From the NCBI RefSeq assembly GCF_053078305.1, contig NZ_CP166879.1: a stretch of DNA of 64,000 bases, one strand, 5' to 3'. Of this stretch, positions 22,122-46,933 are shown piece by piece. A program made the position numbers and the translations under genes. Numbering within the stretch: position 1 is the first letter of the stretch; each line of letters starts with the position of its first letter. The notes below the pieces were generated by a model, which had not been told where the DNA came from, searched no databases, and was given only the letters and a program-made list of their open reading frames with translations.

Positions 22122-22324
22122 AACCTCACTCCCAGCGGACGACGGCGACGGCGGGTTGTCCCCAGTACCGACTCCGCATCATTGATCGCACGGTTAAGCT
22201 CATCCAGAGAAGCCGCCGTATATTCAATTCTGCGACCATCTTTCTGGACAGACACCACCCGTTTACCGGTTAATAAATCAAGGCGCGCCTGACGCAGCGC
22301 CTGCAGTTCAGCGACTGTAACCAT
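22118..22324 (-). CDS. W: Head-tail connector W
   Basis: 68 aa, ...LTGKRVVSVQKDGRRIEYTAASL... matches lambda W. Confidence 0.8.
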   Translation of the reverse strand: MVTVAELQALRQARLDLLTGKRVVSVQKDGRRIEYTAASLDELNRAINDAESVLGTTRRRRRPLGVRL

Positions 22325-24236
22325 TCACTCCTCCGGACAGCTTCGCTGCCAGTTCTTTCAGGGTTGGCCGGGTCGTCTCTTCTTCCCGGGATTTTGCCAG
22401 TACAGCCAGATCAAGCTGCCAGCGTTGCACGGACACACGTAATGCCGCGTAGGCATACACCAGGCAGTCCAGCGCTTCGTTACGCCGCTTTTTGTTATCC
22501 CACAGCAGACGCATCTTTCCTTTTTCCCACTTCTCCACCAGTTCTTCCGCCACCAGTTGCTGCGCCTCTGTCTGCGAAAAAATCTCCGGATCATCAGGAA
22601 AACGGATGGCATACGACGTGGCTTCATCCGCAGGCGTGGGATCGGCTTTCATACGGGCATAGAGAATTTCTTTTGCGGTGTCTGTCCCCACTTCACACAG
22701 ATACACGCCCCGCTGATTGCGGGTTTTTGGCATGGTGATCACCGGCTTGCCATAGACAGATGCGCCTTTTACCGGCAGCACCCGGAAAACACCGTGTTTT
22801 TTTGATCTCTGATAAACAATTTCACCATCGATCCCCCCGGTGTCCCAGCAGACACGGGAAATGGTCATTTCGGTACCGTCTGCATGGCGGTATTTTTTGT
22901 TGATCGCCGCATCCACACGTAACAGCGTCTCTTCCTCATCAGGACGCCCCATAATGATGATTTTATCCACCAGAAAGGCTTCCTCTCCCGGAGCCCATCC
23001 CCAGACATACATCTCAAAACGGTTACGCTGCGAGTCAATGCCCGCCGTCAGATAAACCACCCGGGCAGGCACCGCTGCCGTGTAATGCACGACCTTATCC
23101 ATCAGCACCTGGTGATCGAGTTTTTCGCCCACGGCCTCTTCCCAGGTCTCGCCCAGCGTGGTGTTCACAAAAGTTTTCAGGCCGTTGGGATCTTTCAGTG
23201 CATCCAGCCAGTCATAGACTATCTGTACCCAGGTGGTGAACGGACTGTACGCCGTCCAGATATGGAAAGTGATGGAGCGCGGCGGCGGAATTTCATTACC
23301 CGCAGCGCTGAAAAACGTCAGGCCGTCACGGGTCCACATGCCCGTGTTTTCACAGATCCACCGCCCGTTGCTCTGGTCAAGCTCAGACTGATGGATCACG
23401 CAGCCATGATGTTCACAGAGATAGAAAACGCTTTCGGGGCTGTCCTTCTCCCATTTAAGGCCAAAAGGCGTGGACTCATCGCCAAATTTCAGATACTGCT
23501 CCTCCCCACAGTGCGGGCAGGGCACATAAAAACGCATGAAATGCGCCGACTCGTTGGCCGCTTTTTCGATCTGGCAGGAGCCTTTTATTTTTGGCGTCGA
23601 GCCGCGAATGGATTTTGGCCATACCGAGCCCTCAATACGCTTATCCCCCAGCAGGGTTGGCGAGCCCTCTTTTTCGACATCCGGCTCGAACGAGGAAAGT
23701 TCGTCATAGCAGACCACGTCCACGGATTTTTCACGGTAGTTTTTTGCTGCCGCACCACCCAGGCACCAGAAGCCCACCCCCGATGAAAAGCGTTTCAGCG
23801 TGAGAGTATTGTCACGATGTTTACGACCCAGCCACGGGGAAAGATCTTTCAGGCATGGCACGTCCCGAATCGTCGCCTCCACGTGAGACTTCATAAAATC
23901 TTCAGCGGCAGAATCCGTGGGCTGAAAAAGCAGACTGTTTCGGGATTTATGCTCAATAAAATACCCGACCACCCCCAGCAACATCTTTGTATAGCCAACA
24001 CGGGCAGATTTAATCAGATTAACAGTGCGGATCTGATCATTCCCCATGCTGTTCATGATGGCGATCTGGAATGGCAGCGTTTTCCATTCTCCGTCACCGT
24101 ATGAGGAGTCTTTAGGCAAATAATAATTTTGATCAGCCCATTCAACTGCCGTCATCGGTACAACTCTGACCAGAGGCTGCAGCGCAACCGAAACGGCAGC
24201 CATCATATTATTCAGTTGTTGCTCTGATATATTCAT
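22308..24236 (-). CDS. A: Terminase large subunit A; start trimmed to ATG at 24236
   Basis: MNISEQQ...TAVEWADQNYYLPK...GSVWPKSIRGSTPK...CPHCGEEQYLKFGD... collinear with lambda A. Confidence 0.9.
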   Translation of the reverse strand: MNISEQQLNNMMAAVSVALQPLVRVVPMTAVEWADQNYYLPKDSSYGDGEWKTLPFQIAIMNSMGNDQIRTVNLIKSARVGYTKMLLGVVGYFIEHKSRNSLLFQPTDSAAEDFMKSHVEATIRDVPCLKDLSPWLGRKHRDNTLTLKRFSSGVGFWCLGGAAAKNYREKSVDVVCYDELSSFEPDVEKEGSPTLLGDKRIEGSVWPKSIRGSTPKIKGSCQIEKAANESAHFMRFYVPCPHCGEEQYLKFGDESTPFGLKWEKDSPESVFYLCEHHGCVIHQSELDQSNGRWICENTGMWTRDGLTFFSAAGNEIPPPRSITFHIWTAYSPFTTWVQIVYDWLDALKDPNGLKTFVNTTLGETWEEAVGEKLDHQVLMDKVVHYTAAVPARVVYLTAGIDSQRNRFEMYVWGWAPGEEAFLVDKIIIMGRPDEEETLLRVDAAINKKYRHADGTEMTISRVCWDTGGIDGEIVYQRSKKHGVFRVLPVKGASVYGKPVITMPKTRNQRGVYLCEVGTDTAKEILYARMKADPTPADEATSYAIRFPDDPEIFSQTEAQQLVAEELVEKWEKGKMRLLWDNKKRRNEALDCLVYAYAALRVSVQRWQLDLAVLAKSREEETTRPTLKELAAKLSGGVNGYSR

Positions 24237-24714
24237 CGAGTAAATCCGGTAATTTATCCCCTGCCCGCGCACACTGATTTGCGCCCTTTGCAATAAGGGT
24301 TTTCAGATGGTCAATATGACGTGGCGTTAAATCCGGGAACTGTCGCTGCATGGATAACGGAATGGAATCAAGCGTACTGGACAATGCCATCGCCAGTTTG
24401 CTGAGGGCGAAAACGCAGAAGTCTGAATCGATGAGCTTACCTTCGGTTACCTGATTTTTAAGTTTTTGAGCTACAGCCTGTTCTTCTGTCAGTTCAGCTC
24501 TGGCCCGAAGCAGCCTTTCCTCCAGTTCTCCTCCGTCATCAGGTGTTCTCTGATTGTGTTGTCGCCGCTCGCGATCTATCTCCAGTACAGTTTTAACGTC
24601 ATATAAAACTTCCCTCCCCCGACGTTCAACAGGAGGAACGCCCCATTTATCAAATGCCTGAACAGAGATACCGATGGAGGAGGCCATATCACTTTTATTC
24701 AATAAAAAGGCCAT
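24208..24714 (-). CDS. nu1: Terminase small subunit Nu1; start trimmed to ATG at 24714
   Basis: ...VLYD...LPLSMQRQFPDLTPRHIDHLK... matches lambda Nu1 C-terminal half; immediately downstream of cos. Confidence 0.8.
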   Translation of the reverse strand: MAFLLNKSDMASSIGISVQAFDKWGVPPVERRGREVLYDVKTVLEIDRERRQHNQRTPDDGGELEERLLRARAELTEEQAVAQKLKNQVTEGKLIDSDFCVFALSKLAMALSSTLDSIPLSMQRQFPDLTPRHIDHLKTLIAKGANQCARAGDKLPDLLDEYIRATTE

Positions 24715-24930
24715 CTCCTCTCCATAAGTCATCGATAAAAAGCGAAACAACAACCATGTGTTTTTGCAAAACCATTTGATATCATTGACATTTTTCGCAT
24801 TGACGACATCAAAACACATCGTAAGGTTGTTGTATTGATTTTATTTTCACCTTACTTATCAAGTAGATATACCAAACAATTAAACAACAACCACCCCCTC
24901 AAAAAATCTCATAAATAGTGAAAACGCGCG

Positions 24931-24942
24931 AGGTCGCCGCCC
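24931..24942 (-). other. cosN cohesive-end sequence (GGGCGGCGACCT on minus strand)
   Basis: rc of 24911-24942 = GGGCGGCGACCTCGCGCGTTTTCACTATTTAT, near-identical to the lambda left end. Confidence 0.85.
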
Positions 24943-25201
24943 CGTAACGGGTCCATATGCCGGAAAGGACCCGAGAAAATGATAATGATTATCAGTTGCA
25001 ACAAAATCCAGTTTCTTCCACCATCGCACCGGACCAGCGACCATGAGGGGACAACGCCGCGCTCCGTTAACGCGGTAAACCCCGGTGTGTATCGTTTTTG
25101 ATTATCCCCGCACACTCGCGCAGAGGAGTCTCCCTGTCGGGCTGCGGTCTCTGTTAATGCAGGAATACGGCGACAATACCGCGCATGGATAATAAGGTCG
25201 C

Positions 25202-25426
25202 TCAACACACTGGCTGTAATGCAGCCGATACCATGCGGCATTTAGCTGCATTCATCGTACACTCAACGGTTAGCTCTTCATTCGTGGCATTCACCTGAAA
25301 GGTCCGGGAGTGTAATTGCGTACATTTACCACTGAACGAACCTTCAACAAGAACACGACCACACTGCAAAATACGGAACGGAATTGTTCCCTGAAAAGGC
25401 TTTACGGTTACCAGTAATTTCTTCAT
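25202..25426 (-). CDS. Hypothetical 74-aa protein between Rz and cos
   Basis: MKKLLVTVKPFQGTIPFRILQCGRV...; GGAG RBS 5 nt upstream of ATG at 25426. Confidence 0.4.
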   Translation of the reverse strand: MKKLLVTVKPFQGTIPFRILQCGRVLVEGSFSGKCTQLHSRTFQVNATNEELTVECTMNAAKCRMVSAALQPVC

Positions 25427-25449
25427 GCATTCTCCGGATAACAAAAATA

Positions 25450-25917
25450 CTAGTTAATACACTGAGTGCGGATATATTCCTTCGCCCCTTCCAGCTGCTT
25501 CTGCATTGTCATCAACCGTTCTCTGAGGATGAAATAATCCCGTTCAGCGGTGTCTGCCAGTCGGGGGCCGGTTGCATTATCCACGCCGGAGGTGGTGGGG
25601 GCTTCACGCACGGAGCCTGGACAGGTGGCTTTAACCCGCAGGCGCTTACGACCAGCGGCAACATCAGCACGCAGAGTTTCATTTTCAGCTCTCGCATCGG
25701 CTAATTCCCTCGAGTATTTAGCATCGAGCGCAGCAACATCGCGCTGGCGCTGCTGCATATCAGTAATGGTTGCGTTTGCCAGCTCCAGCTCTCTGGCTTT
25801 TTTATCGCGCTGCGCTTTGTAGGTGATGGCGTTATCGCGGTAATGATTCAGCCCCAGACTAAGCGCACCACAGGCCACCAGCAGGACAATAATCACCACA
25901 CACAGAACACGGTTCAT
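25450..25917 (-). CDS. Rz: i-spanin Rz
   Basis: ...[45 protein letters not shown]... matches lambda Rz. Confidence 0.9.
25512..25697 (-). CDS. Rz1: o-spanin Rz1 lipoprotein, embedded in +1 frame of Rz
   Basis: ...[27 protein letters not shown]... matches lambda Rz1; lipobox VSAC. Confidence 0.85.
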
Positions 25918-26849
25918 ATCACCACCATTTCACTGTTTTCTTTTTCCAGACGTTTTTTTGCAACAGCGAAATACCGGTCATCCTTTTCTATTCCGGTAAA
26001 CCGTCTCCCCGTCCGGATACATGCAACACCTGTTGAACCACTCCCCATAGTAAAATCCAGTACCCTGTCGCCAGGGTTGCTGTACGTCTGAATCAGCTCT
26101 TCCAGTAATGCAACTGGCTTCTGGGTCGGATGCCATCGCTCCCGCTCCCGCGCGTACTCCAGAATATTTGCGCGGTATTTTTTCCCCTGAGGGAGATTAA
26201 AAACCACAGTGCCGTAACCGGAATTCACTTTGCACATTTCTTCATATGTCATGAAACCCGGCATACGGTCGATACCAAAGCGTTTAATTAACTCGTTGTA
26301 CGTATCCTGTGAGCAGAGGGAAAACTGGACTGTGTTCACGCGAAAAAAATGCTCTGCCCGACAGTGCCCCAGTGTTTTGTTAACTTCCTTGTCTGTCCTG
26401 TGGCCAATGAAAGAAAGGATATTTCGGGCGTACTCCCTCAGCGGGTGGTTTTTCTCACTGTCATATTTTTTCCGGAAAACAACGATATCCTCGAATAAAG
26501 ATACAGGTGCTTTTTTTACTGAAAGCGGGTTGGGGAAATGCTCCTTCTTCCACACCATACGATATAAAAACGGCAGGTTTTTATCCGCCAGAGTAATCAT
26601 CGTGCTTGTATGCGGCTCCTGGCTGAACATGACCAGCACACCGCCCACCCTCAGCAGTCGTTCGCACTGTGTGAAAATATCTTCAGGATTTAAGGCATCG
26701 TCCCATGCTGTCGTACTCTTATCCCATGTACGGAGTGTAAGCCCTTTAATGGTTCCATACGGCGGGTCACATAAAACCAGGTCAACACTTCCCGGTAGTA
26801 ATGAAGGCATAACATCAAGACAGTCACCGGAATACAGTACACATTTCAT
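25914..26849 (-). CDS. DNA methyltransferase, beta-class (DPPY, N6-adenine or N4-cytosine); stop overlaps Rz start
   Basis: [10 protein letters not shown] near N-terminus; HPTQKP and FTMGSGSTG (SAM-binding) near C-terminus; ATGA overlap with Rz. Confidence 0.75.
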
Positions 26850-26856
26850 GTTTCTG

Positions 26857-26988
26857 TCACCCCACCAGCCCTGACAGAGTTAAGACGCGCCAGGCAGTGG
26901 AAAAGCAAATAGCAACCAGCATTAGTGAAAATGAAATGCCGACGATTACACAGAGGATCTTCGCCAGCATTATGAGTTTGTCTGACAT
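26857..26988 (-). CDS. Small single-pass membrane peptide (43 aa)
   Basis: MSDKLIMLAKILCVIVGISFSLMLVAICF...; GGGAGG RBS; ends 5 nt before the MTase start. Confidence 0.45.
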   Translation of the reverse strand: MSDKLIMLAKILCVIVGISFSLMLVAICFSTAWRVLTLSGLVG

Positions 26989-27002
26989 GTTTAATCCTCC
27001 CT

Positions 27003-27185
27003 TCACGATTTCAACGCAATGACCAGTTTTGCCAGCCCATACAGCATCGGAGACACAGCGATACCGACCGCCACCCACTTAATAGCAAAAGCCAGTGCTC
27101 TGCTGATGTCATCAGTTACTGGCGCTTTCAGTTCAAGGCCGTTTTTCATAGTCAACCTCAACAGAATTCGTTTATACTTTTCCAT
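27003..27185 (-). CDS. Small membrane protein (60 aa from ATG 27185; track ORF uses GTG at 27218)
   Basis: MEKYKRILLRLTMKNGLELKAPV...IKWVAVGIAVSPMLYGLAKLVIALKS; GGGAG RBS; C-terminal TM helix. Confidence 0.45.
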   Translation of the reverse strand: MEKYKRILLRLTMKNGLELKAPVTDDISRALAFAIKWVAVGIAVSPMLYGLAKLVIALKS

Positions 27186-27227
27186 GTTCTCCCTTGCCTT
27201 ATCCAAGGTCAGAAACACAAAACCCCG

Positions 27228-27256
27228 CTTGCTGCCAACAAACGGGGTTTTTACTT
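27228..27256. terminator. Bidirectional hairpin terminator between endolysin and downstream insert
   Basis: aaaaccccg...cggggttttt with A-run and T-run flanks. Confidence 0.5.
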
Positions 27257-27341
27257 TTATTCACTTACATTTTGCCAGTTCGCAGGATTTCGTGTTATCC
27301 GTCCATGTAAGCAAACCTCATTTTTCAGCAAAATATTCTGC

Positions 27342-27875
27342 TTATCTGTCGATTTCCCAGCACGCCAGCGCGCTCTCCTGGTCTCTCCGGGATACCTGAC
27401 CGTAACAGTTATTTGAGCGAATACGGCAGTCTCTGCCACCGTCCTTAATCCACCAGCGAATCGCCTCACACGCTCCCCTGCGATCGCCTGCATTAATTCG
27501 TTTATAAAACGTCGACGGGAAACACTTACCTGGGCCAATGTTGTAAGGACAGAATGACGCGATCCCCGCTTTCTGGGGTTCAGTCAGTGGCACTTTGATG
27601 TTTTTCGCCACCCATGCCAGCGCCTTATCACGTTCAATGGCGTTAACCTGGTCGCATTTTTCCTTCGACAGCTTCATGCCAGGGACGACAGGCTTACCAT
27701 CCACCCGGGTGGCACCACGGCAGATGGTCCAGATACCCGCACCATCACGGTATGCCGTGCTGTGGTTACCTTCTTTTTCGTCAAGAAACTGGTCGAGGAT
27801 TTCAGGCGCAGGCGCACCTGCGGCAATCAGCGCCAGAACAGCAGCTGACAGGCCGTATTTGATTTTTGCGTTCAT
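27342..27875 (-). CDS. R: SAR endolysin (phage lysozyme with N-terminal signal-anchor-release domain)
   Basis: N-terminal weakly hydrophobic Gly/Ala-rich TM (LSAAVLALIAAGAPAPE) then lysozyme-like body; pinholin partner upstream. Confidence 0.8.
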   Translation of the reverse strand: MNAKIKYGLSAAVLALIAAGAPAPEILDQFLDEKEGNHSTAYRDGAGIWTICRGATRVDGKPVVPGMKLSKEKCDQVNAIERDKALAWVAKNIKVPLTEPQKAGIASFCPYNIGPGKCFPSTFYKRINAGDRRGACEAIRWWIKDGGRDCRIRSNNCYGQVSRRDQESALACWEIDR

Positions 27876-27911
27876 GTATATATTAAATATTCAGCCGCTG
27901 TCCCTGGCCCA

Positions 27912-28898
27912 CTAAATACGCACTTTAAGATAAGTCAGCCCCGGCTGGATCCAGCCATCAGGCTCTTTCTTAAAGGGTGGCGTATTGAAATCACAAAGAA
28001 GAGCCTCCCGCACCGCAGCATCCCTGTCTGCACCACTGGCAAGTGCTTCAATCTCTGCCGCCAGCTGCAGATATCCCATGCAGCGACCAATGCGCTTCAT
28101 CAGCCCCTGTTTTTTATTGTTCTTCAGGTAATCAATGGCAAATTCAATGAGCGTCTCACTGTGCTGGTGCGATGGCGGTGTTACTTTTCCATTTTCTGAT
28201 ATGGTGATTTTCCCGTCATCACCGGATACAACAAAGGATGGCCGGTTACACTCCCGTTCCTGGTTTTTGTCCGACACAGGCACAGTAAAATCACTTTCAT
28301 GCCCGTTTTTACGACAGTCCTCGCCACGTACCGCAGCAAATACCGACAAGGCATACTCCTTTGCTCTCGCTTCATAGTCGCTGAATGTTGTTTTCGGATC
28401 GTAGTCTTCCCTGTACATAACCGACAGAACTTCCTCATGATCAATATGAACACTGACCACGCTGCCTATTCTTTTGGTCAGCACAAGACGAGAATCTTCC
28501 CCGACTTTCACTCCTGGTGTCACACGTGCCGGAAGCTCCACATTAACCATCGCGCTCTGCACATCATCAGGCGCATTTTTTACCGGTTCGTTGACCTTTT
28601 CACGCCCCGGGTAAGTGGCGATTTTTTCCGGCATTGTCCATGAAGAAATATTCTGAAAGCCACATCGCGCAGTCCCTTCGCGTAATCCGAGAGCCGCATC
28701 CATGAAAAACTGCTTCGCCTGTTTTTTCGCCTCAGCTTCGTAAAATTCCAGCGTGGCACCTTCAGTACGGTCAAGACTAATCGCCACATATGGCGACAAC
28801 AACGACGGCTGACCGGCAATTTCCAGTGCCACCGTAACAGTTATCTTATCCGGGTAATGATTTATCCCTTTTACAACCAGTTCATATTTGTTATTCAT
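27912..28898 (-). CDS. Unknown 328-aa protein inserted between holin and endolysin
   Basis: MNNKYELVVKGINHYPDKITVTVALEIAG...; GGGGAGAG RBS; start 5 nt after S stop; no TM or signal peptide; no motif I can assign. Confidence 0.7.
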   Translation of the reverse strand: MNNKYELVVKGINHYPDKITVTVALEIAGQPSLLSPYVAISLDRTEGATLEFYEAEAKKQAKQFFMDAALGLREGTARCGFQNISSWTMPEKIATYPGREKVNEPVKNAPDDVQSAMVNVELPARVTPGVKVGEDSRLVLTKRIGSVVSVHIDHEEVLSVMYREDYDPKTTFSDYEARAKEYALSVFAAVRGEDCRKNGHESDFTVPVSDKNQERECNRPSFVVSGDDGKITISENGKVTPPSHQHSETLIEFAIDYLKNNKKQGLMKRIGRCMGYLQLAAEIEALASGADRDAAVREALLCDFNTPPFKKEPDGWIQPGLTYLKVRI

Positions 28899-28902
28899 CG
28901 CT

Positions 28903-29118
28903 TTACTCTCCCCGGGCCGCCTTACGCCGGTCTTCTCTGATTTTAAAATACAGGTTCGTCAGGTATGTCAGCAGACCAAACAGCAGACTCCCCAGCACGC
29001 CTATTGCCGCCCACTGAGACGGGGAAACCCTGTCCAGCAACTGCAGGAACCAGTAGCCCGTTCCCACCGCTGACGTGGTGTATGACACACCTGTTGTGAT
29101 TTTTTCCATCTGGTACAT
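28903..29118 (-). CDS. S: Class II pinholin (phage 21 S-like), dual-start motif MYQMEK
   Basis: ...[51 protein letters not shown] matches S21; GGGAGACGGGG RBS. Confidence 0.85.
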
Positions 29119-29194
29119 ACCCCGTCTCCCGCAATCCGGAAGCTCACAACAATATAAAGACCACCGGCACACACCGATGGTCCCTTGCGCATGC

Positions 29195-29440
29195 TTACAT
29201 CATCATGTCGCTGTCAGGTGTGGGTTCACCGCCATCTGAAGCACTCCCCTCACCCGCAATGCCTTCCGGCTCCGGAACTGCCGGTGCGCCCAGCAGTTCA
29301 TCCAGAATGGCATCCACTTCTGCATCAAGACGCGCCTCAAGGTTCTGGCGGAGTTTCTGTTTCAGTGCGCTCAGGACTTCTTCAGAGCGCAGGACTTCCT
29401 TCACTGCCTCTGCAGTGACCAGGGATGTAATTTCTGACAT
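29195..29440 (-). CDS. Hypothetical acidic 81-aa protein
   Basis: [30 protein letters not shown]... from internal ATG of track ORF 29195-29614. Confidence 0.4.
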
Positions 29441-29480
29441 GGGATTTTCTCGTCGAAAGGTGTGATTAAGAAAGTTGCAG

Positions 29481-29660
29481 CTAAATGAGCGGCTCTTCGG
29501 GTTTGCTTCCGGCTGACTGACTGGCGCTGATTTTCTCTGCGGCCCTTTTATCAATCTGCCTGCGCCAGAAATCGCGCACTGCCCTGTACCCACCCGAAAG
29601 AAGATACAGCACACAGACCGCCGTACAGAAGTACAGCATCACCTGATGAATAAATGTCAT
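29481..29660 (-). CDS. Hypothetical small membrane protein (59 aa), not in ORF track
   Basis: Own translation MTFIHQVMLYFCTAVCVLYLLSGGYRAVRDFWRRQIDKRAAEKISASQSAGSKPEEPLI. Confidence 0.4.
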   Translation of the reverse strand: MTFIHQVMLYFCTAVCVLYLLSGGYRAVRDFWRRQIDKRAAEKISASQSAGSKPEEPLI

Positions 29661-29798
29661 AATTTCTTACCGTTATGGTTGACAATAAAAACTGTTTTCA
29701 TTTAAAAAACAACCGATGTACGAAAGCATCTTTTCTTTACATTCTCCATTGGGATTACCTCCGCCAGCTTCCATTCCTGCCGCTGGCGGCTTTTTTTA

Positions 29799-31766
29799 TC
29801 ATGCCGCGACGTCCGCGTTGTTCACTTCCACCTTCACACTGTCAATCAGCAGCGTATATGCCGCCGCCTTTGATATGTCTGTCAGTTGCAGTTTGTCCGC
29901 CGACCCTGATGCCGGAGATTTCACCAGTGTGAACGGTGTACCCCGTTTCTCATCCAGTACCGGCATCACCTGAATGCTGTTGTTTCCGGCAAACTCAAAA
30001 GCCAGTGTGTGCCATCCGTTATCAAAGACCCCGAACGTATCCAGCTTCGCATTCTGCTTCTTGTGGTACATCGCGTTCAGGTTCGTCGCATCCGTCTGCA
30101 GGAAGAAGGACATCAGCATGTCGTTGCCTTCCTCTGACAGCGTCACTCCCTCCGGCAGGGACGGCAACTGCCAGTAAATACCCAGGGCAAACTGATTCGG
30201 CACCAGTGCGCCCGGCACCTTAAACCGCACGCTCACACGTCCGCCTTTCTTCAGCAACTCTGCTCCCTGCCCGGCGGCATCATGCTCCAGAAACCAGATG
30301 TGGCTTTCCGGTTTGTTCAGTTGCAGGGCCTTACCACCGGTGGCACCCTCATCACTGACCACAGCCTCAGCGATGTTTTTATCAACACTGTCTCCGCTCG
30401 CCGGTTTGTGATAATAGCGCCAGCCCTGTGATGCCAGGTCTTCACCGGACGCCAGCAGACTCATCAGGGTTCGGTTACTGACCGGGGCTTCCGGCTCTCT
30501 CTCCGGGCCTTCACCGGAAGGTCCGGTGGGCTTCACCGTATCAGGCTGTTTTCCGGTAATGAATTCAGCGGTTCTCCCGGCATGCACCAGAATCGCCGTT
30601 GCCAGACGGTCGGAAATAATCCCACGGCGTGCCCAGGTGCTGAAATGGCTGGCCCTGTCCACAGATGTCCAGGTCTTCTGGTCATTACGCCACTTTGAAC
30701 CGTAATAACCGACGGCTTCCAGGTCCGGGTCTTCTGCCGGGTCATTGGTCTGCACATTCGCACCATTCTCATCCGTCATTAACGGTACAAAGAAAATGTT
30801 CTGCGACTCCTTACCCTTATACCCTCCGTATACTGATGCATACCCTTCCGCATGACGCTGCTTCCAGAAATACGTTGTGTCCCCGCAAATCCACGGTACC
30901 GTTGATGCGCTGCCTCCTGTGCACTGTGATGCCTGACCGGCAAGGTCCGTTCTGAACTGATTCACCATCGCACTAAACAGCCCCGGATGCTGCGCATGCG
31001 TCCCCACTGCCGCATCACCTTCTCCCTGCATCCACACCACCGCAAGCAGACGGTTTTTCGGGTTCTTCGCCAGTGCGGCTTTAGTCCGGCTCACCAAATC
31101 CTGATACAGCGGCTTACCCACACCCCAGCGCAGTGAATTTTCCGATGCACCGGCTGATTCGCTGTATGTGCCGTCTGCACCCGTTGTGAATGCCGAAGCA
31201 CCACGGCAGCACGGAACCAGCAAAATGCCCGCATTCGCCGGTATAAACGGCAGCAGTTTTTTGGCGATATGCAGCCCCTGCCCCACGGTTCCGTACTGCC
31301 CCTTTGACAGGTCCGCTTTCGGATGGTTAAGACGGCTCATGTCCTGCACATCATGCAGACAATGGTCCGCCGGAATAATGTCGTTATACTTACAGGCGGC
31401 ACCGCCCGGTGTCACCGTACTGCGACGCGCCAGCTGCTTAATACGCGGGTCCGGACGGTCATATGTCTCCGGCAGCGGAAGGCCTTCACCATACGACATG
31501 CCGTTTGACTGCCCCGCCAGAACAACAACAAAGTAATACTCCGGTTCGCTGGTGGCGCTGATAACTGTGCCTTCTCCATCCGACGGCTTCACCACCACAG
31601 GTGTGGTGACATCACCTTCCGCCGCAATAGCCTGCATCAGGGTATAAGGCGTGATGGCCACCGGACTGCCAAATGGCTGCCACCCCTCCTTCAGTTTTTG
31701 AGTCAGTCGCTCCGCAAGGTCTGACGGCGACGCCGCCCTGACCACGTCATAGTGTTTAAATGCCAT
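29799..31766 (-). CDS. nanS-p: NanS-p-like sialate O-acetylesterase (DUF1737 N-terminus + SASA/SGNH domain)
   Basis: VVLAGQSNGMSYG catalytic-Ser motif; 655 aa; occupies the position seen downstream of stx in Stx phages. Confidence 0.7.
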   Translation of the reverse strand: MAFKHYDVVRAASPSDLAERLTQKLKEGWQPFGSPVAITPYTLMQAIAAEGDVTTPVVVKPSDGEGTVISATSEPEYYFVVVLAGQSNGMSYGEGLPLPETYDRPDPRIKQLARRSTVTPGGAACKYNDIIPADHCLHDVQDMSRLNHPKADLSKGQYGTVGQGLHIAKKLLPFIPANAGILLVPCCRGASAFTTGADGTYSESAGASENSLRWGVGKPLYQDLVSRTKAALAKNPKNRLLAVVWMQGEGDAAVGTHAQHPGLFSAMVNQFRTDLAGQASQCTGGSASTVPWICGDTTYFWKQRHAEGYASVYGGYKGKESQNIFFVPLMTDENGANVQTNDPAEDPDLEAVGYYGSKWRNDQKTWTSVDRASHFSTWARRGIISDRLATAILVHAGRTAEFITGKQPDTVKPTGPSGEGPEREPEAPVSNRTLMSLLASGEDLASQGWRYYHKPASGDSVDKNIAEAVVSDEGATGGKALQLNKPESHIWFLEHDAAGQGAELLKKGGRVSVRFKVPGALVPNQFALGIYWQLPSLPEGVTLSEEGNDMLMSFFLQTDATNLNAMYHKKQNAKLDTFGVFDNGWHTLAFEFAGNNSIQVMPVLDEKRGTPFTLVKSPASGSADKLQLTDISKAAAYTLLIDSVKVEVNNADVAA

Positions 31767-31963
31767 GAATCCTCCCGGTCGGGATAATGTTGTGAGTCAG
31801 ATAAGGGGCGGGCTGAAGTCCGGAAGTTACAGGACAATGGCAGGAGGAAGACTACAGCCCGCAATACGAAAAAGGCCGCGCAGTTGCGCAGAGTGATTAC
31901 TGTCGGGTATTATTCGCCAGCTGAAAAATTGATTACTTCACGTTTTGTTGTTTATTCCTTGCT

Positions 31964-31993
31964 GCCCGCATCTCACCATGCGGGCTTTTTTTA
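31964..31993 (+). terminator. Rho-independent terminator on + strand
   Basis: cccgcat-ctcacc-atgcggg hairpin followed by cttttttta. Confidence 0.5.
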
Positions 31994-32000
31994 TCCATAA

Positions 32001-32238
32001 GAAAGCCCCTCCGGAGAGGGGCTGGAGTAGCGCTATGTACCGTTCATTACATGATGCCGGGTGCCTCCCGGTGAGTTCAGCCCGGTGCCACCGAACCCGC
32101 GTCATTCTCGCTAACGATCATCAGAGACCATTCCGTACACCAGCCGCCCCTCCGCACAGGGGGATTCATCATGCAGAAATTTTTTAACAAATTCTCAGTC
32201 GGGAAGACAACCTTCAACTGACTGAATTGTGAGCAACA
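32001..32238. repeat. Structured repeat unit 1 (~238 bp), diverged copy of unit at 32489-32723
   Basis: Shared blocks: gcccctccggagaggggc hairpin, gccgggtgcctcccggtgagttcag, cccctccgcacagggggattca-ATG, ttttaacaaa, ctgaattgtgag. Confidence 0.7.
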
Positions 32239-32488
32239 TAGCATTTAACGGGGAACCTGTTTTCTGCAGTAAAAAGGCCCACCGGAGCGGACGGGCCTGG
32301 AAGGATAGCGGTCATGTGATGCCGGTTTCCCGGTAACTCAGCACCGGTATCTGAGTCAACGTTTTCTCTACTGGGTCATTTCCGATACGCCCTGCCTGCT
32401 GACAGGCTTTCATCACATCTGAAAATATAGCACCCTGACTGATACTGTAGTACCCAAGGTTCCAGAAACTGTGATGTATCCGGCACAG

Positions 32489-32723
32489 AAAAGCCCCTCC
32501 GGAGAGGGGCTGACGCTGCGTATCTGTATCATCATGCGCATGGTGCCGGGTGCCTCCCGGTGAGTTCAGTATCAGCACCTGAACCCGCACAGAAAGGATA
32601 AGGGATGTAACCAAACACCTGTCGCTGATATGCCCCTCCGCTCAGGGGGATTCACCATGCCAGTTTCTTTTAACAAACTCCCCGCAAATCAGACAACTGT
32701 CAACCGTCTGAATTGTGAGACAT
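32489..32723. repeat. Structured repeat unit 2 (~235 bp)
   Basis: Same block order as unit 1; hairpins preserved by compensatory changes (ccgcaca vs ccgctca loop). Confidence 0.7.
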
Positions 32724-32789
32724 TTAAAATTTTCGGGGCAACAGGAAGACAATCATCACGACACCGGCAACCAGCGACCGGCACCAGAT

Positions 32790-33725
32790 TTAACGTATGT
32801 GCACACAACCTGAACCGGCATCAAAAAACAAACCGTGCACTGACAGAAAACGGGAAACCTCCGTCCGCTGATCATCACTCATTAAGGACCACACAAAGGC
32901 GTTATGCTCATCTTCAAGTTTCCGTCTTCTTGTTTGCCTTACAAGCAACTCAGCCGTCACCTGTACAATGTCAATGACCACCTTCTCTTCAGCAATGTAC
33001 GGCCTGTTCCAGTTCTCTGTGTTAATCTTCTCCGTCACCGGCGCTGACTTTTTGCAAGTTTCCCCATTAAACCCGACGCCATAAACAACAACATCATCGC
33101 TTTGCTTTTCGTTATCAATAATGACGAATAATACAGAAACCGATGTATCAGCGAACCCGCCTGAAATCTGAACCAACTCAACAACGCGGTTGCCAAAATA
33201 CTGACGCATTGCCAGCTCACCACGCCTGTAACCAACCCCGGGAAAGCACAAAAAAAATGAAAATCTTGCCTTCATACTCGCCAGAACATAAAACGCGTCA
33301 TCCAGAACACCGGAGGTCTTTTTATAAGGCATCATCGCTGAAATCTTCTCCCTGATATCCGCGCTCTGTGCTTTGTACTGTAGCGAAAAAGGCGGATTCA
33401 TGATGACACAATCGAACGTGTCCGTGTCACTGACATCATCTATGGCGTTGAAGAAATTTTCATTGACCGTCTTCACTGTGGCATCCGGAAAGTTATCCGG
33501 GATATGCAACAACGGAGAGGCCTGTATATCCACAGCATACAGACTTCCCACCGTGAGAAACTGCTCCAGTTGCCCGGAGCCACACGCACCATCAAAAATA
33601 CTCAGGGGCAGATCACCACAATATTCCCGCACTTTTTCAGCGACAAACCGACGCAAAGGAACGGACGTGATGTACTCTGCGTATTTTCTGGCGACTTCGC
33701 GATTATTGGATTCCTGAAAAACCAT
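32790..33725 (-). CDS. Putative N6-adenine DNA methyltransferase, gamma-class-like (motif I before NPPF)
   Basis: IFDGACGSGQL (SAM-binding) then VIMNPPF; 311 aa, too small for a separate target-recognition domain; lies at stx-equivalent locus. Confidence 0.6.
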   Translation of the reverse strand: MVFQESNNREVARKYAEYITSVPLRRFVAEKVREYCGDLPLSIFDGACGSGQLEQFLTVGSLYAVDIQASPLLHIPDNFPDATVKTVNENFFNAIDDVSDTDTFDCVIMNPPFSLQYKAQSADIREKISAMMPYKKTSGVLDDAFYVLASMKARFSFFLCFPGVGYRRGELAMRQYFGNRVVELVQISGGFADTSVSVLFVIIDNEKQSDDVVVYGVGFNGETCKKSAPVTEKINTENWNRPYIAEEKVVIDIVQVTAELLVRQTRRRKLEDEHNAFVWSLMSDDQRTEVSRFLSVHGLFFDAGSGCVHIR

Positions 33726-33810
33726 TTGTGAAAGGCTCTGTGGTTGATATGCGCCGGGCGTGGCACGGAGACAAAAAAGGCCCGCAAAAGCGAGCCTGGG
33801 AAAATAAGTG

Positions 33811-33887
33811 TGGCGCGTTGTACTGGATTCGAACCAGTGACCGATTGCTTAGAAGGCAATTGCTCTGTCCGACTGAGCTAACAACGC
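33811..33887 (-). tRNA. argO: tRNA-Arg (anticodon UCU), argO-like
   Basis: Cloverleaf folded by hand: acceptor GCGTTGT/ACAACGC, anticodon loop CTTCTAA, T-loop GGTTCGAATCC, CCA end. Confidence 0.75.
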
Positions 33888-33900
33888 ATGATGCTGATAA

Positions 33901-33977
33901 TGGACCGCCATCGGGGACTTGAACCCCGCGCAGCCAGCTTCGAAGGCTGGCGCTCTGTCCCGATGAGCTAATGGCGG
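33901..33977 (-). tRNA. argN: tRNA-Arg (anticodon UCG as read), argN-like
   Basis: Acceptor CCGCCAT/ATGGCGG, anticodon loop CTTCGAA, T-arm CGGGGTTCAAGTCCCCG. Confidence 0.65.
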
Positions 33978-33986
33978 TATGTGATA

Positions 33987-34062
33987 TGGTGGCCCTTGCT
34001 GGATTTGAACCAGCGACCTGGCGATTATGAGTCGCTCGCTCTCACCACTGAGCTAAAGGGCC
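33987..34062 (-). tRNA. ileZ: tRNA with CAU anticodon, ileX-like (tRNA-Ile2 via lysidine, or Met)
   Basis: GGCCCTTTAGCTCAGTGGTGAGAGC...CTCATAA...GGTTCAAATCC...CCA; close to E. coli ileX. Confidence 0.75.
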
Positions 34063-34102
34063 GGGTGCAGGATAATAACGGTACGTAACTAATCCTGCAA
34101 TA

Positions 34103-35161
34103 TCATCCGTTCTGACTGGCTAAATCCTGAACTTCCCTGACCGTCTGCTCAAAACGTTCAGTCTCCAGCTCAACGCCAGTTGCACGACGCCCCAGCGCCA
34201 TCGCGGCTTTGACTGTCGAACCCGACCCCATGAAAAAATCTGCAACCAGGTCCCCCGGACGACTGCTCGCGCTGATTATCTGCTGCAGCATTTCTGCCGG
34301 TTTTTCGCACGGATGTTTCCCGGGATAGTACTGCACCGGTTTATGCGTCCACACATCCGTGTACGGCACCTGCGCCGTCACACCGAAATACCGCCGCAGA
34401 TGCTTATATTCACTCTGCAGTTCCGCATACTGCCGGTTCAGTGAAGTATATGTCTCCAGCAGCTGGTGGTGGGGCTTTTCCAGTTCACCCCGCTGATGCT
34501 TCTCTTCTGCCACCCGGGCAAACAGCGCCTGTAATTTCAGATAATCACTTTCGTTCGGCAGCTGCCACTGACTGGCACTGAACCAGTGCGACACCATGTT
34601 TTTCTTTCCTGTGGCATCCACTATCTGTTTTGCCGTTATCCCCAGGGCAGCGCGCGCATCACGAAAGTAAGCAATCAGCGGGGCCATCACATGCTGTTTC
34701 AGTGCCCTGCCCTTCGCCTCATACCCGGCATCTTTCGGACGATACGGCCCCTGATAATGTTCCGCGAACAGAATGCGCTCTGTGGCGGGGAAATACGCCC
34801 GCAGGCTTTCCTTGTTGCACCCGTTCCAGCGTCCGGACGGCTTTGCCCAGATGATATGGTTCAGCACACTGAAGCGTTCACGCATCATGATTTCAATGTC
34901 AGACGCCAGGCGATGACCACAGAACAGGTAAAGACTTCCGGCAGGTTTCAGCACCCGCCAGAACTGCGCCAGACACTGGTCCAGCCACTTCAGGTAATCA
35001 TCGTCGCCCTTCCACTGGTTATCCCAGCCCTCGGGCTTCACTTTAAAGTATGGCGGGTCTGTGACTATCAGATCGACAGAGTTTTCCGGTAAGGTCTGGA
35101 TAAATTCCAGGCAATCAGCGTTGATTAACTCACAACTGGATATTTTTACAGTATTAAGCAT
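34103..35161 (-). CDS. DNA methyltransferase, beta-class (DPPY ... FxGxG), 352 aa
   Basis: DLIVTDPPYF near N-terminus; DFFMGSGSTV near C-terminus. Confidence 0.75.
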   Translation of the reverse strand: MLNTVKISSCELINADCLEFIQTLPENSVDLIVTDPPYFKVKPEGWDNQWKGDDDYLKWLDQCLAQFWRVLKPAGSLYLFCGHRLASDIEIMMRERFSVLNHIIWAKPSGRWNGCNKESLRAYFPATERILFAEHYQGPYRPKDAGYEAKGRALKQHVMAPLIAYFRDARAALGITAKQIVDATGKKNMVSHWFSASQWQLPNESDYLKLQALFARVAEEKHQRGELEKPHHQLLETYTSLNRQYAELQSEYKHLRRYFGVTAQVPYTDVWTHKPVQYYPGKHPCEKPAEMLQQIISASSRPGDLVADFFMGSGSTVKAAMALGRRATGVELETERFEQTVREVQDLASQNG

Positions 35162-35311
35162 GGATCATTAAGCCTGTCTCTGATAGGCTCATTCTGCTTT
35201 TGCGCAAAGCAGTGGGCCTGAGGTTTGCTTGTGACCCCAACGCATGAGCAGATGGCTGGTGAGTGCCCCTAACACCCACCAGCCGCCCATTTACCACAAA
35301 TAAAAAAGCCT

Positions 35312-35509
35312 TCAGGACTGAAGGCGTCTGTAACAACCGAACTGATAGTCTGCCAGACCCGCCATAACAAGCTGGGTCAGTATTAACTGACAGCGTTCGC
35401 GTGAAAGGTAAGTATTCTGCGCAATCTCCCCGACTGTCGCCGGTTCGGTGACGCTTAATTCATTAAACACCACTCTGGCGGTTTCGGTCATATCCTGCTG
35501 TTTCAGCAT
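35312..35509 (-). CDS. Hypothetical small protein (65 aa); start uncertain
   Basis: MLKQQDMTETARVVFNELSVTEPATVGEIAQNTYLSRERCQLIL...; longer track ORF crosses a terminator hairpin so N-terminal extension rejected. Confidence 0.3.
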   Translation of the reverse strand: MLKQQDMTETARVVFNELSVTEPATVGEIAQNTYLSRERCQLILTQLVMAGLADYQFGCYRRLQS

Positions 35510-35632
35510 GTCTTTTTCCCTTTTCCGGTTAACGTGACACACCAATAACTCTTGTCGAAAAAGCCAGCAAGCTGAAAGACCCGTATTCGCAACCACCAGC
35601 GCGTTTACTGTACTGACGCGATTTTCGGACAT

Positions 35633-35660
35633 AAAAAAACCACCTGGCGGTGGTTTTTTC
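35633..35660 (-). terminator. tR'-like rho-independent terminator downstream of Q
   Basis: aaaaaaaccacctggcggtggttttttt palindromic hairpin with flanking A/T runs. Confidence 0.55.
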
Positions 35661-35720
35661 TTACTTTGCCATCGCGTACAAAATCGGCAAAATATCAGAT
35701 TTATACGAAACATACGCGAT

Positions 35721-36410
35721 TTAATTGACTTTTGCAATATCTCGTCGTGAAAAGGTCGCTTTTTGTTGCGCTCTTATTTTCACGGAGCAAATCAAGGATT
35801 CTCTATCGAGGCGCTTAAAAATATCGCACATCTCACGCCAGTAGTTCGCATAATTATGGCTCCAGTTATCAGGCTTAACTCCACACAGTCTGGCAAGCTC
35901 CTGTCTCTGGTAGACCTCACACCCGGTAACCCATCCTCTGACATCCTGTGCCGCCAGCCAGATCAACTTCTTCACACGCTCCAGCGTTTTCACTGCAATT
36001 TTTCTGGTACCAGACTGAGTTTTAAATTCATTCCACACCCACTGCGTTATCGCGATCTGATGCTCCCAGCAAATGTTTCCGCCATAACACCACAACAACC
36101 ACGCCTTCTGATGTTCTTCCAGTTCCAGAAGGGCACGCCGCCACGATGATGTTGCAAACTCAACAGGACTGACCAGCGCAATTGATGAGCCTTTCGCCAG
36201 TGATTGTTTACCCGGGATTGGGGGATTATCCCGCGTGATCATTTTTCCGGTTACCTCATCGCGGTAACGAATTTTTTTGCGTCTGTAACGCCCTGTATCG
36301 AACAGGGCATTTTCCTGCCAGGCTTCCAGTTGACCTTTTGTCGCCCCACTGAGATCCGCAGTGGCAATCATGAGTTGCTCACGAACAAACTGTAAATACT
36401 GGTTATTCAT
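35721..36410 (-). CDS. Q: Late antiterminator Q-like protein
   Basis: Position directly upstream of terminator and late genes, downstream of rusA; ~230 aa as Qin-type Q proteins. Confidence 0.55.
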   Translation of the reverse strand: MNNQYLQFVREQLMIATADLSGATKGQLEAWQENALFDTGRYRRKKIRYRDEVTGKMITRDNPPIPGKQSLAKGSSIALVSPVEFATSSWRRALLELEEHQKAWLLWCYGGNICWEHQIAITQWVWNEFKTQSGTRKIAVKTLERVKKLIWLAAQDVRGWVTGCEVYQRQELARLCGVKPDNWSHNYANYWREMCDIFKRLDRESLICSVKIRAQQKATFSRRDIAKVN

Positions 36411-36766
36411 GCACACCCCACCTCTGTAATTTTTATCTCCAGCCGTCCACCAGATACTGGCTTGCCACGTACAATATTGATTTCATCAAACTGCTCGTCA
36501 TCAATAAGCACTCCCGCATGCGTCAGCGCATCCAGCGGTGCTTTCAGAATATTGTCCAGGTCACGACGACGCTTATCCGGTGGCTCTGCAATAATTTTTA
36601 TTGCCAGCCGTCCGGACAGGCTTAATTTCAGCCGCTGCTGGCGAACAATAAGCGCCACTGCACGGCGATAACGCTCCCCGGCTTTTGATACAAAATATGT
36701 GCTGCCACGGCGTCGCCAGTAAGTGTTCACCGTCGGCGGGTAAGGTAAAACCAAATCTATGAGCAT
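36407..36766 (-). CDS. rusA: Holliday junction resolvase RusA
   Basis: ...PYPPTVNTYWRR...KRRRDLDNILKAPLDALTHAGVLIDDEQ...GGRLEIKITE matches RusA. Confidence 0.85.
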   Translation of the reverse strand: MLIDLVLPYPPTVNTYWRRRGSTYFVSKAGERYRRAVALIVRQQRLKLSLSGRLAIKIIAEPPDKRRRDLDNILKAPLDALTHAGVLIDDEQFDEINIVRGKPVSGGRLEIKITEVGCA

Positions 36767-36778
36767 CAGTCACCTCTT

Positions 36779-37861
36779 TTACCCGAGCACGCCAGTCGCA
36801 AAGGCGTGATCAAGAAAACGAAAAATTAACTCAATCTGAGAGCCGTACTTTTTCTCAAACTCCAGCGGGTCTGCATGAAGTTCGTTGTGGTGCTCCCGGC
36901 ACAACGGTAGCGTGAAAATATCGTGGGCCTTTGTCCCCATTCCCCCCTGACCATGACCAATCAGGTGATGCGGATCGTCAGCAGGCTTACCACAACACGC
37001 ACACGGCTGTGTCTTTACCCAGCGCGTGTATTTCTCATTAACCCAACGGCGACGTTTAGGCCGCCTCATGAACGATTCAGGAGACTCCGGATCAACGGCG
37101 ATACTGACAACCGTTTTTTTCTGTGGTGGATTTTGTTGCTGGTGGACGTGAAGTGGCAGCGCAATATTTTTTGTGCGCTGCTTCAGTATGCTGATGGCTG
37201 TCTGTTCTCCCGGTACGATGTCACTCTCACGGTATACGGAGCGGATTTTTTCCGCTGGTAATCCCAGCGAACGACGCGCTACTGCCTCAGGTAGTGCATC
37301 CACCACCTGATTGCAGGCCGCCCACCAGGATAATTCGGCCAGCGATAACTCCCTCTCCTGCGTGCCGCTTATTGCGTGACGGATGACGTCAATCATCCAG
37401 GCAACCAGATTCTGCTGAGCAAGTTGATCGAGTGATTCTGATGTCTGGTCGCGCAGCTGGTTGTCACAGTGCCAGCACAACACCATCGCGCCGGTACCGT
37501 AACGGTGAATGACGGTTTCGCTGTGATGATAATCGCCATGTGGCCACTGGCAGGATTTCACGTGACGTAATAACCAGTCAGACAGCGCACCAGCACCGCC
37601 AGCGGCACGAATCACCCGTTCATTGCTGAAAAATGGCAGTAATGATTTATCCTCAGCCAGCGGCTGGCAAACGACAGGAACAACCCCGGACGGCAAACTC
37701 CGCATGCTTTTGGGTTCCGGCTCCACCAGCACCCTGCCGCGATGAAAAACCGGCAGTAATTCGCGACCAGGCTTAATGACCACCAGGCCAAGTTCCGGGA
37801 CCAGAACAGGTCGAAGTAATACCCGCACATTATCTCCAGACACGCTGACGGTAGCAGGCAT
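36779..37861 (-). CDS. DUF968 (YdfU-like) nin-region protein
   Basis: 360 aa; C-terminal Cys/His cluster CACCGKPADDPHHL...CREHHNELH; position as Qin ydfU. Confidence 0.55.
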   Translation of the reverse strand: MPATVSVSGDNVRVLLRPVLVPELGLVVIKPGRELLPVFHRGRVLVEPEPKSMRSLPSGVVPVVCQPLAEDKSLLPFFSNERVIRAAGGAGALSDWLLRHVKSCQWPHGDYHHSETVIHRYGTGAMVLCWHCDNQLRDQTSESLDQLAQQNLVAWMIDVIRHAISGTQERELSLAELSWWAACNQVVDALPEAVARRSLGLPAEKIRSVYRESDIVPGEQTAISILKQRTKNIALPLHVHQQQNPPQKKTVVSIAVDPESPESFMRRPKRRRWVNEKYTRWVKTQPCACCGKPADDPHHLIGHGQGGMGTKAHDIFTLPLCREHHNELHADPLEFEKKYGSQIELIFRFLDHAFATGVLG

Positions 37862-38690: not shown

Positions 38691-38846
38691 TTACTTCTCA
38701 GATTCGTAGTCTACGAAGACAGCAACCTCCGTCTGGCCGGTTCGGATTCGTACCTCGCAGAGGTCTTTCCTCGTTACCAGTGCCGTCACAACAACGGTAA
38801 TACAGATGACGATCAGGGCGATTAACATCGCCTTTTGCTGCTTCAT
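38691..38846 (-). CDS. hok: Hok-family type I toxin (51 aa)
   Basis: MKQQKAMLIALIVICITVVVTALVTRKDLCEVRIRTGQTEVAVFVDYESEK; track ORF extends upstream (mok-like reading frame). Confidence 0.8.
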   Translation of the reverse strand: MKQQKAMLIALIVICITVVVTALVTRKDLCEVRIRTGQTEVAVFVDYESEK

Positions 38847-39136
38847 AGCCTGCTTCTCCTTGCCTTTCGGCACGTAAGAGGCTAACCTACGTTTGTGAAG
38901 CATAGATTGGGCCTCAGATTAATGTTAAGCGTCCTGCAAGACGCGTAATGTTAACTGGGGCTTTTCTCTGTCTGCCTTACGGCGGCATGCCCGAGGCAGA
39001 CAGCCTCAAGCACCCGCAGCAATTCTACTTAACTCTTCTTTCCCCGCAAACCGTTTTTATCCCCAGCGGCAAATCGAATACACCACCAGCGCCACCGCCA
39101 TTGCAATACCAACATTTGAGAAGGCCTCAGGCCAGC

Positions 39137-46475: not shown

Positions 46476-46933
46476 AAAGTGAATTTTGTGATGCGGTGAA
46501 TGCGGCTAAGCGCACGCGGAACAGTTAAAACCGTAAAGTGGTCTTTTACGGGGCGTAACGGGCATACTTCTGTATTCCGGCGTTAATTGTTAACTGGTTA
46601 ACGTCACCTGGAGGCACCAGGCACTGCATCGACAAAGTTCACTTCGGTGATGAAAGGTAAGAGAAAATGTTGAATGTAGCTATTGAAAACCAGAACGGGT
46701 GGAATTATAGTGCACCTGCACCTCATAAAGCGGGTGCCGGGATTGCTACCCCGATGTTCATCATGGCGCATAACCGCGCTCAGGCGTTTTTTTTATGCGT
46801 AATGCACAGCCACATTCAGATTATGGTGGGGCGTGCAGGGCAGCCGCAAGGCTGGCCGGGTTCCATGATGACCGGTTGTAGCAACCCTGTGCGTCTCACC
46901 ACCCATGAGATTGCTACCTCCGGTGGTGAGTTA

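Follow-up and report, generated by a model that had tools for sequence, protein, structure and literature searches.

The window analysed here is the whole 64,000-nucleotide stretch of contig NZ_CP166879.1 (NCBI RefSeq assembly GCF_053078305.1), and it holds an apparently complete lambdoid prophage of the Shiga toxin (Stx) phage type, without stx, of Escherichia coli. The late region of this prophage carries three intact methyltransferase genes, named MT1, MT2 and MT3 below, none of which has a recognisable nuclease partner. The explanation that best fits the whole of the data, and that we regard as likely, is that the late operon encodes three solitary DNA amino-methyltransferases that would protect the progeny genomes from restriction. 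The three genes are listed below.

25914..26849, minus: MT1, predicted beta-class DNA amino-methyltransferase, 311 amino acids (aa), in the lysis cassette between endolysin and Rz
32790..33725, minus: MT2, most probably an N6-adenine DNA methyltransferase, gamma-class fold without target-recognition domain, 311 aa, in the stx cargo slot
34103..35161, minus: MT3, predicted beta-class N6-adenine DNA methyltransferase of the M.EcoGII/M.EcoGI family, 352 aa (PF01555, E 2.9e-43)

Three solitary methyltransferase genes of two classes

A preliminary description, made from the letters alone, had reported these three open reading frames (ORFs) and assigned them to two classes, and both points were borne out. 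MT1 and MT3 show the beta-class order (DPPY followed by FxGxG), and MT2 has motif I before NPPF. Catalytic motifs are preserved in all three. In a scan of all window ORFs of at least 90 aa, the pattern [DNS]PP[YFWH] was present in MT1, MT2 and MT3 only, and no fourth methyltransferase (e.g. an early-region Dam as in VT2-Sa-type phages) was found among these ORFs. In family searches, MT1 and MT3 matched PF01555, and MT2 gave weak matches to MTS and PrmC and a strong match to PHROG 6380, 'DNA methyltransferase' (E 1.5e-77). All three proteins are present as exact sequences in public assemblies, and the closest complete genomes label MT1 and MT3 'DNA-methyltransferase' and MT2 'SAM-dependent DNA methyltransferase' (sometimes 'type I R-M subunit M', for restriction-modification).

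The description had further stated that no restriction partner is encoded nearby, and this held when the neighbours were searched. PADLOC gave no match for any of the neighbouring ORFs tested (7/7), and PHROG and Pfam assigned the neighbours to lysis, packaging, esterase or unknown-function families, with no restriction enzyme. The adjacent cognate restriction endonuclease that marks a type II system was found for none of MT1, MT2 and MT3. As a separate observation, the DUF968 protein (36779-37861, minus), adjoining RusA, has a Cys/His-rich C-terminal stretch (CACCGKPADDPHHL...CREHHNELH) that resembles an HNH/zinc-finger nuclease motif. The gene belongs to the standard nin-region set, has no PADLOC match and is not a restriction partner.

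MT3 is, judged from its sequence, a member of the M.EcoGII family and a near copy of M.EcoGII. The PF01555 (N6_N4_Mtase) match covers its full length (residues 29-340), with DPPY at 35-38, FFMGSGST at 309-316 and the recognition domain between them, as in the beta class. MT3 and M.EcoGII are identical at 327 of the 348 aligned residues (~94%, full length), and this value is a floor because the M.EcoGII sequence was taken from a machine-read copy of Table S1 in PMC11551740, which has a few obvious errors. Identity reached 98% with the methyltransferase of phage 1720a-02, an enzyme named as very similar to M.EcoGII (PMC5778455), and 88% with L24 of phage P27. P27 L24 is in turn 67% identical to p25 of Serratia phage OS31, whose relaxed specificity was demonstrated by experiment, and OS31 p25 is 58% identical to the non-specific ARM81ld p56 (PMC7556043). 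M.EcoGII acts on adenine whatever the sequence around it; the lysogen does not express it, and its constitutive expression does harm (PMC5778455). Those members of the family that have been tested modify adenine in nearly every context. An ST131 homologue 99% identical to M.EcoGI was predicted, on reverse transcription PCR (RT-PCR) evidence, to be inactive in the conditions tested (PMC4659465). Frequencies were counted in 5426 complete E. coli genomes, and relatives in phages were sought in 50,697 deposited phage genomes. MT3-type genes are present in 2027 of the 5426 genomes (37%), with up to seven copies per genome, and MT3 is therefore an already known and very common gene. In Stx phages, the MT3-type gene occupies the site between Q and the tRNA/stx locus. 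MT3 is prophage-borne, without a nuclease partner, and what suggests its silence in the lysogen is the terminators downstream of Q. The gene is directly preceded by a small conserved ORF.

35312..35509, minus: conserved 65-aa ORF directly upstream of MT3 (PHROG 331; Pfam TrmB E 0.0027, below significance; weak winged-helix similarity)

The 65-aa ORF, placed between two terminator hairpins, always directly precedes the M.EcoGII-type gene, as in locus L001 (13565-13762), in the related prophage L002, in the Stx2a phage L006 (10646-10843) and in phage P27; its position in L016 is 5712-5909. By analogy with the C proteins that control R-M systems, it might control the methylase.

MT1 also matches PF01555 over its full length (residues 22-299, E 1.9e-32), with DPPY at 28-31, FTMGSGST at 266-273 and the presumed recognition domain between them, and its fold is that of the solved beta-class members. 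It is 26% identical to MT3. High identity to the M.EcoGII family was not observed (25-26% by pairwise BLASTP, 29% in the alignment), and only the general layout is shared with that family (PLxxY...G...H[WF]F...Q[WF] in the helical insert). At 25-29% identity, the properties of M.EcoGII are not transferable to MT1, which presumably acts on DNA. DPPY favours N6-adenine over N4-cytosine. The surroundings of MT1 are listed below.

25450..25917, minus: Rz i-spanin gene with embedded Rz1 at 25512-25697 (PHROG 13, E 2.3e-76); its ATG overlaps the MT1 stop codon (ATGA)
26857..26988, minus: predicted 43-aa membrane ORF directly upstream of MT1 (PHROG 4906; hypothetical protein in L001)
27342..27875, minus: endolysin R (PHROG 7, endolysin, E 2.8e-62), upstream boundary of the MT1 slot

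Compared with L002, which lacks MT1, the gene is a clean 965-bp insertion (25885-26849) between the small membrane ORF and Rz. The MT1 stop and the Rz start overlap by 4 bp (ATGA, 25914-25917), and this junction (GCATGAACCG) was also present in the three loci read (L011, L013 and L015), which belong to Salmonella lambdoid and P2-like prophages. MT1 homologues of 56-66% identity are abundant in Salmonella. At all four loci examined, the homologue lies directly upstream of Rz and the endolysin gene precedes it, with a 45-aa ORF in between in L013 and L015; this endolysin-methyltransferase-Rz synteny is found in lambdoid prophages (L011, L012 and L013) and in a P2-like prophage (L015). It is lost for a homologue of 54% identity on a metagenomic contig, which sits in a cluster of three methyltransferases. 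That the ATGA junction is kept points to a single module, in which methyltransferase and spanin gene travel together and are translated together. MT1 was found in 8 of the 5426 E. coli genomes. The deposited phage genomes contained no close relative (best 54%, vB_EcoM-ep3), and our literature search found no described methyltransferase within a lysis cassette.

MT2 has motif I (FDGACGSGQ) ahead of NPPF, and the motif order X, I, IV (NPPY/F) together with the gamma-class catalytic fold places it in the gamma class. In the structural model, MT2 consists of a core of ~240 residues, two helices and a small hairpin, with no C-terminal target-recognition domain. The nearest structures are HsdM and M.TaqI, not Dam. 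Homologues are 275-330 aa long; their core of ~240 residues is invariant and their C-terminus variable, and they form a small, phage-borne family (54 clusters at E<1e-30 and 517 at E<1e-3 among 1.84 billion representatives). They are solitary in temperate phages, examples being 46-kb phage contigs and a lambdoid prophage of Providencia, where the gene lies between DnaB and RusA. In Streptococcus phage Javan169 and Mannheimia phage 587AP2, they adjoin other DNA methyltransferases. MT2 was found in 11 of the 5426 genomes, and the deposited phage genomes held no close relative (best 43%, Javan169). MT2 is most probably a DNA N6-adenine methyltransferase, and the lack of a recognition domain makes a relaxed specificity plausible.

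The position of MT2 was defined by comparison with the Stx2a phage. Homology runs from the Q-distal DNA through MT3 and the tRNA genes, ends at 33762 and resumes only at the STnc100-like element at 31997-32232. Therefore, MT2 and a second STnc100 copy fill the place of stx2AB. The presence of MT2 in the exact Shiga-toxin slot of related phages illustrates cargo exchange at that slot.

More speculatively, MT2 could stand for a small lineage, confined to phages, of adenine methyltransferases reduced to a gamma-class (HsdM) core; with no recognition domain, it may methylate DNA with little or no specificity. The MT1 family, for its part, could be a fixed part of a lysis module that is mobile and joins methyltransferase and Rz, with translational coupling to the spanin gene. 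If MT2 were non-specific, the beta-class M.EcoGII and the Dam-like Hia5 families would be joined by a third structural solution to non-specific N6-methyladenine (m6A) methylation. A variant in which MT2 borrows the host HsdS via its C-terminal helices, so that phage DNA would be methylated at host type I sites, is less likely.

Expression and role of the three genes

The elements that bear on the expression of the three genes are listed below.

35721..36416, minus: antiterminator Q, upstream of all three methyltransferase genes on the same strand (homologues in L001 and L002 annotated 'bacteriophage antitermination protein Q')
35639..35651, minus: intrinsic-terminator hairpin, candidate tR', just downstream of Q (AAAAAACCACCGCCAGGTGGTTTTTTT, perfect hairpin with a T-run)
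35308..35325, minus: second terminator-like hairpin, between the 65-aa ORF and MT3 (GCCTTCAGTCCTGAAGGC, then a T-run)
33778..33797, minus: third terminator-like hairpin, between tRNA-Arg and the MT2 start (AGGCTCGCTTTTGCGGGCCTTTTTT)

MT1, MT2 and MT3 are downstream of Q and behind intrinsic terminators, and a late, Q-dependent expression is therefore the natural inference. A consensus scan of the minus strand in 25000-36600 called one promoter-like site only, within the RusA/Q coding region. In Stx phages, transcription from pR' ends immediately downstream unless Q acts (PMC7547250, PMC6266700). In the proposed mechanism, the three genes would be silent in the lysogen, and the enzymes would be made only when Q antiterminates late transcription. 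They would then modify the replicated phage DNA prior to packaging, and the methylated progeny genomes would resist restriction (types I, II, III and BREX-like) in the next host. Late, Q-dependent methylation of progeny DNA against restriction is our best reading, and it agrees with the description, which had proposed orphan, probably anti-restriction enzymes expressed during lytic growth. There is documented precedent for promiscuous m6A methyltransferases that prophages carry and that stay silent in lysogens (PMC3526280, PMC3299994, PMC4659465), and we found no methylome of induced Stx-phage virion DNA in the literature. The finding is real and was correctly read, and it is largely ordinary. 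MT1 and MT2 are uncharacterised phage orphan methyltransferases in two recognised cargo slots (the endolysin-Rz gap and the stx2AB slot).

Several points weigh against this reading. The consensus scan called no pR' promoter between Q and the first terminator, and pR' is for this reason assumed by analogy with Stx phages. The sequence does not settle whether the base modified by MT1 is N6-adenine or N4-cytosine. MT2 matches the Pfam DNA-methylase models weakly, and its best Pfam family is the mixed-substrate MTS. In most of the genomes that carry MT1 or MT2, each occurs without the other. Finally, an MT3 that methylates nearly all adenines would make other adenine methyltransferases look redundant, and the trio may consequently be a by-product of mosaic recombination.

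That the trio has no joint function, being an accident of mosaic recombination among lambdoid prophages in which MT3 is ancestral and common and MT1 and MT2 are independent, interchangeable cargo, is possible, although we consider it the less probable account; each enzyme may still be anti-restriction, and this account is compatible with our best explanation. The far higher frequency of MT3-type genes compared with MT1 and MT2 in the E. coli genomes fits it, as do the several genomes in which MT1 and MT2 lie in different prophages, the clean indel of MT1 relative to L002, the homology breakpoints that flank MT2 relative to the Stx2a phage and the frameshift in the MT3 homologue of L002. By contrast, all three ORFs are intact here with their catalytic motifs, and the same trio recurs at 97% identity within one prophage in two other genomes, FHI_NMBU_11 and JNEC-KY174. 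These were the only two of the 5426 genomes with the trio, so in this respect the description was right to call three such genes in one prophage unusual. Temperate phages with several methyltransferases are nonetheless common (Javan169, 587AP2 and the metagenomic cluster of three; see also the discussion in PMC5778455, and PMC6602927).

Expression of at least one of the enzymes in the lysogen, where it would serve host or prophage in epigenetic regulation or as a 'molecular vaccine' instead of protecting progeny DNA, is improbable. M.EcoGIII, another Stx-phage methyltransferase, which has a nuclease, is active in lysogens and changes the expression of many genes (PMC6602927), and terminator read-through is compatible with the sequence. 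However, MT3 and MT2 are cut off from Q by three terminator-like hairpins, no promoter-like site was called directly upstream of MT1, MT2 or MT3, and MT1 is translationally coupled to a lysis gene. In addition, enzymes of the M.EcoGI/GII type leave no methylation signal in lysogens, and their expression is toxic (PMC5778455, PMC4659465).

It is very improbable that MT2 methylates RNA (e.g. tRNA or rRNA), with the three phage tRNAs encoded upstream as possible substrates. The best single Pfam match of MT2 is MTS (PF05175, E 1e-3), a family that takes in rRNA and protein methyltransferases, followed by N6_Mtase (PF02384, E 2.6e-3); the NCBIfam hsdM match reached E 4.9e-6 and that to PrmC was weak. 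Furthermore, one homologue is named 'predicted RNA methylase' by JGI, and the gene abuts tRNA genes. The ranking of structural folds and the genomic context of the homologues oppose an RNA substrate, and most MT2 homologues carry precomputed PF02384 matches.

The idea that one methyltransferase belongs to an R-M or defence system whose nuclease is an unrecognised neighbouring ORF is largely refuted and highly improbable: several neighbours lack an assigned function (the 328-aa DUF1327 protein, the small membrane ORFs and the 65-aa ORF) and some MT2 copies in RefSeq are named 'type I restriction-modification system subunit M', but the same neighbours are present in relatives without MT1 or MT2, MT2 scores 25.5 bits against the curated cut-off of 242.75 for HsdM (NCBIfam TIGR00497), neither hsdS nor hsdR genes were found in the window, and MT2 homologues are solitary in other phages.

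The prophage and its late region

The prophage genes are on the minus strand. The order is terminase (22308-24819), lysis genes, SASA esterase, tRNAs, Q (35721-36416), RusA, DUF968 and replication genes, followed by cII and the repressor, the antirepressor region, a RecE-like exonuclease and the integrase (50720-51739). RusA, DUF968 and terminase are standard lambdoid genes. The late region (24800-36500, 11.7 kb) was compared with the complete RefSeq E. coli genomes and was intact in none of them (best cover 79-85% at 95-97% identity). Further features of this region are listed below.

33811..34062, minus: cluster of three phage tRNA genes in the MT3-MT2 interval, one with a CAT anticodon (named ileZ in relatives) and two for Arg, TCG and TCT (ARAGORN, Rfam)
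31993-32203 and 32483-32689, minus: two copies of the small RNA STnc100 (Rfam RF02076; 164 and 135 bits, gathering score 47)
27912-28898, minus: 328-aa ORF between holin and endolysin (N-terminal DUF1327, E 8e-32; the rest PHROG 1085, no known function)

The same tRNA trio is found upstream of stx2A in the Stx2a phage L006. The tRNA at 33987-34062 (minus) was called Met (CAT) by ARAGORN and is annotated as tRNA-Ile (ileZ) in relatives; presumably, it is of the type with a lysidine-modified CAT anticodon. The STnc100 pair takes up the 1-kb interval, apparently non-coding, that separates MT2 from the esterase gene; in the Stx2a phage, only one copy is present, downstream of stxB. STnc100/PasD has been tied to the esterase-holin-lysozyme block in a 2026 preprint. 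The segment with the 328-aa DUF1327 ORF differs among related prophages.

Other observations concern the rest of the prophage. Two matches to the sok antitoxin RNA (38841-39015 and 5284-5442, minus; 118 and 64 bits) imply two hok/sok-type toxin-antitoxin modules. Matches to the isrK and C4 antisense RNAs (46718-46906, plus) are at the 5' end of the ORF 46667-47518, which is antirepressor/Rha-like (PHROG 995). The unit looks like a P1/P7-style C4-controlled antirepressor in a lambdoid prophage, and the true start of the ORF is probably downstream of the isrK/C4 RNAs. A tRNA-Ser (TGA) gene (1860-1947) lies near the left end, and beyond the integrase (50720-51739) there is an ORF (52147-52806) that we take to be the host gene yccA. 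Together, these suggest a prophage of ~50 kb integrated at the serT/yccA region.

Comparison with known systems

Late-on prophage orphan methyltransferases that blanket the progeny DNA with m6A are an established counter to restriction, and the prophage described here is a somewhat richer example. Two features merit attention: MT2, as a minimal gamma-class enzyme in the stx slot, and the coupling of methyltransferase and Rz that is conserved in the MT1 family. Both of these uncharacterised enzymes are cheap to clone and test, and they give the finding its practical value; non-specific adenine methylases are now useful reagents for chromatin footprinting and RNA work.

The closest known enzymes are M.EcoGII and M.EcoGI from prophages of E. 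coli O104:H4 C227-11 (PMC5778455), mutually 95% identical. Common to them and MT3 are DPPY, the central helical recognition domain, FxGxG, a prophage location and the absence of a nuclease. MT3 has 352 aa with few substitutions compared with the 349 aa of M.EcoGII, and its activity is predicted from sequence. The MT3 family also includes p25 of Serratia phage OS31 and p56 of Aeromonas phage ARM81ld (PMC7556043), linked to MT3 through P27 L24; they are more distant and come from other hosts. In OS31, the methyltransferase gene is just upstream of the lysis cassette (PMC7556043). MT1 differs from the solved beta-class enzymes M.BceJIV, M.MboIIA, CcrM and M.RsrI by a helical insert of its own of ~110 residues, the presumed recognition domain.

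For MT2, the comparison is with type I HsdM (EcoR124, EcoKI) and with the M.HaeV family. MT2 lacks the HsdM N-terminal domain, is far under the family cut-off, and is phage-borne and solitary. Hia5, Hin1523 and Nme1821 (M.HaeV family, PMC3299994) are prophage orphan adenine methyltransferases with a reduced recognition region, near-absent specificity and a proposed anti-restriction role, the same concept as proposed for MT2. Pasteurellaceae homologues had prompted an assignment of MT2 to this Hia5/HaeV type, and it was ruled out. The Hia5 family, set apart here by its description in PMC3299994, is Dam-related with DPPY as motif IV, whereas MT2 has NPPF and a gamma-class HsdM-like core; because motif IV and core differ, the two are different lineages.

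In Stx2-converting phages (Stx2a_WGPS2, 933W type), the order in common with the window is methyltransferase, three tRNAs, cargo, STnc100-like RNA, SASA esterase, holin, endolysin, cargo and Rz. The Stx2a phage reads methyltransferase, ileZ-argN-argO, stx2A-stx2B, esterase, DUF1378, DUF826, holin, lysozyme, ant and Rz. The two differ in their cargo: the slot of stx2AB in the Stx2a phage is filled here by MT2 and the second STnc100 copy, and the endolysin-Rz gap, where ant is annotated in L006, is filled here by MT1.

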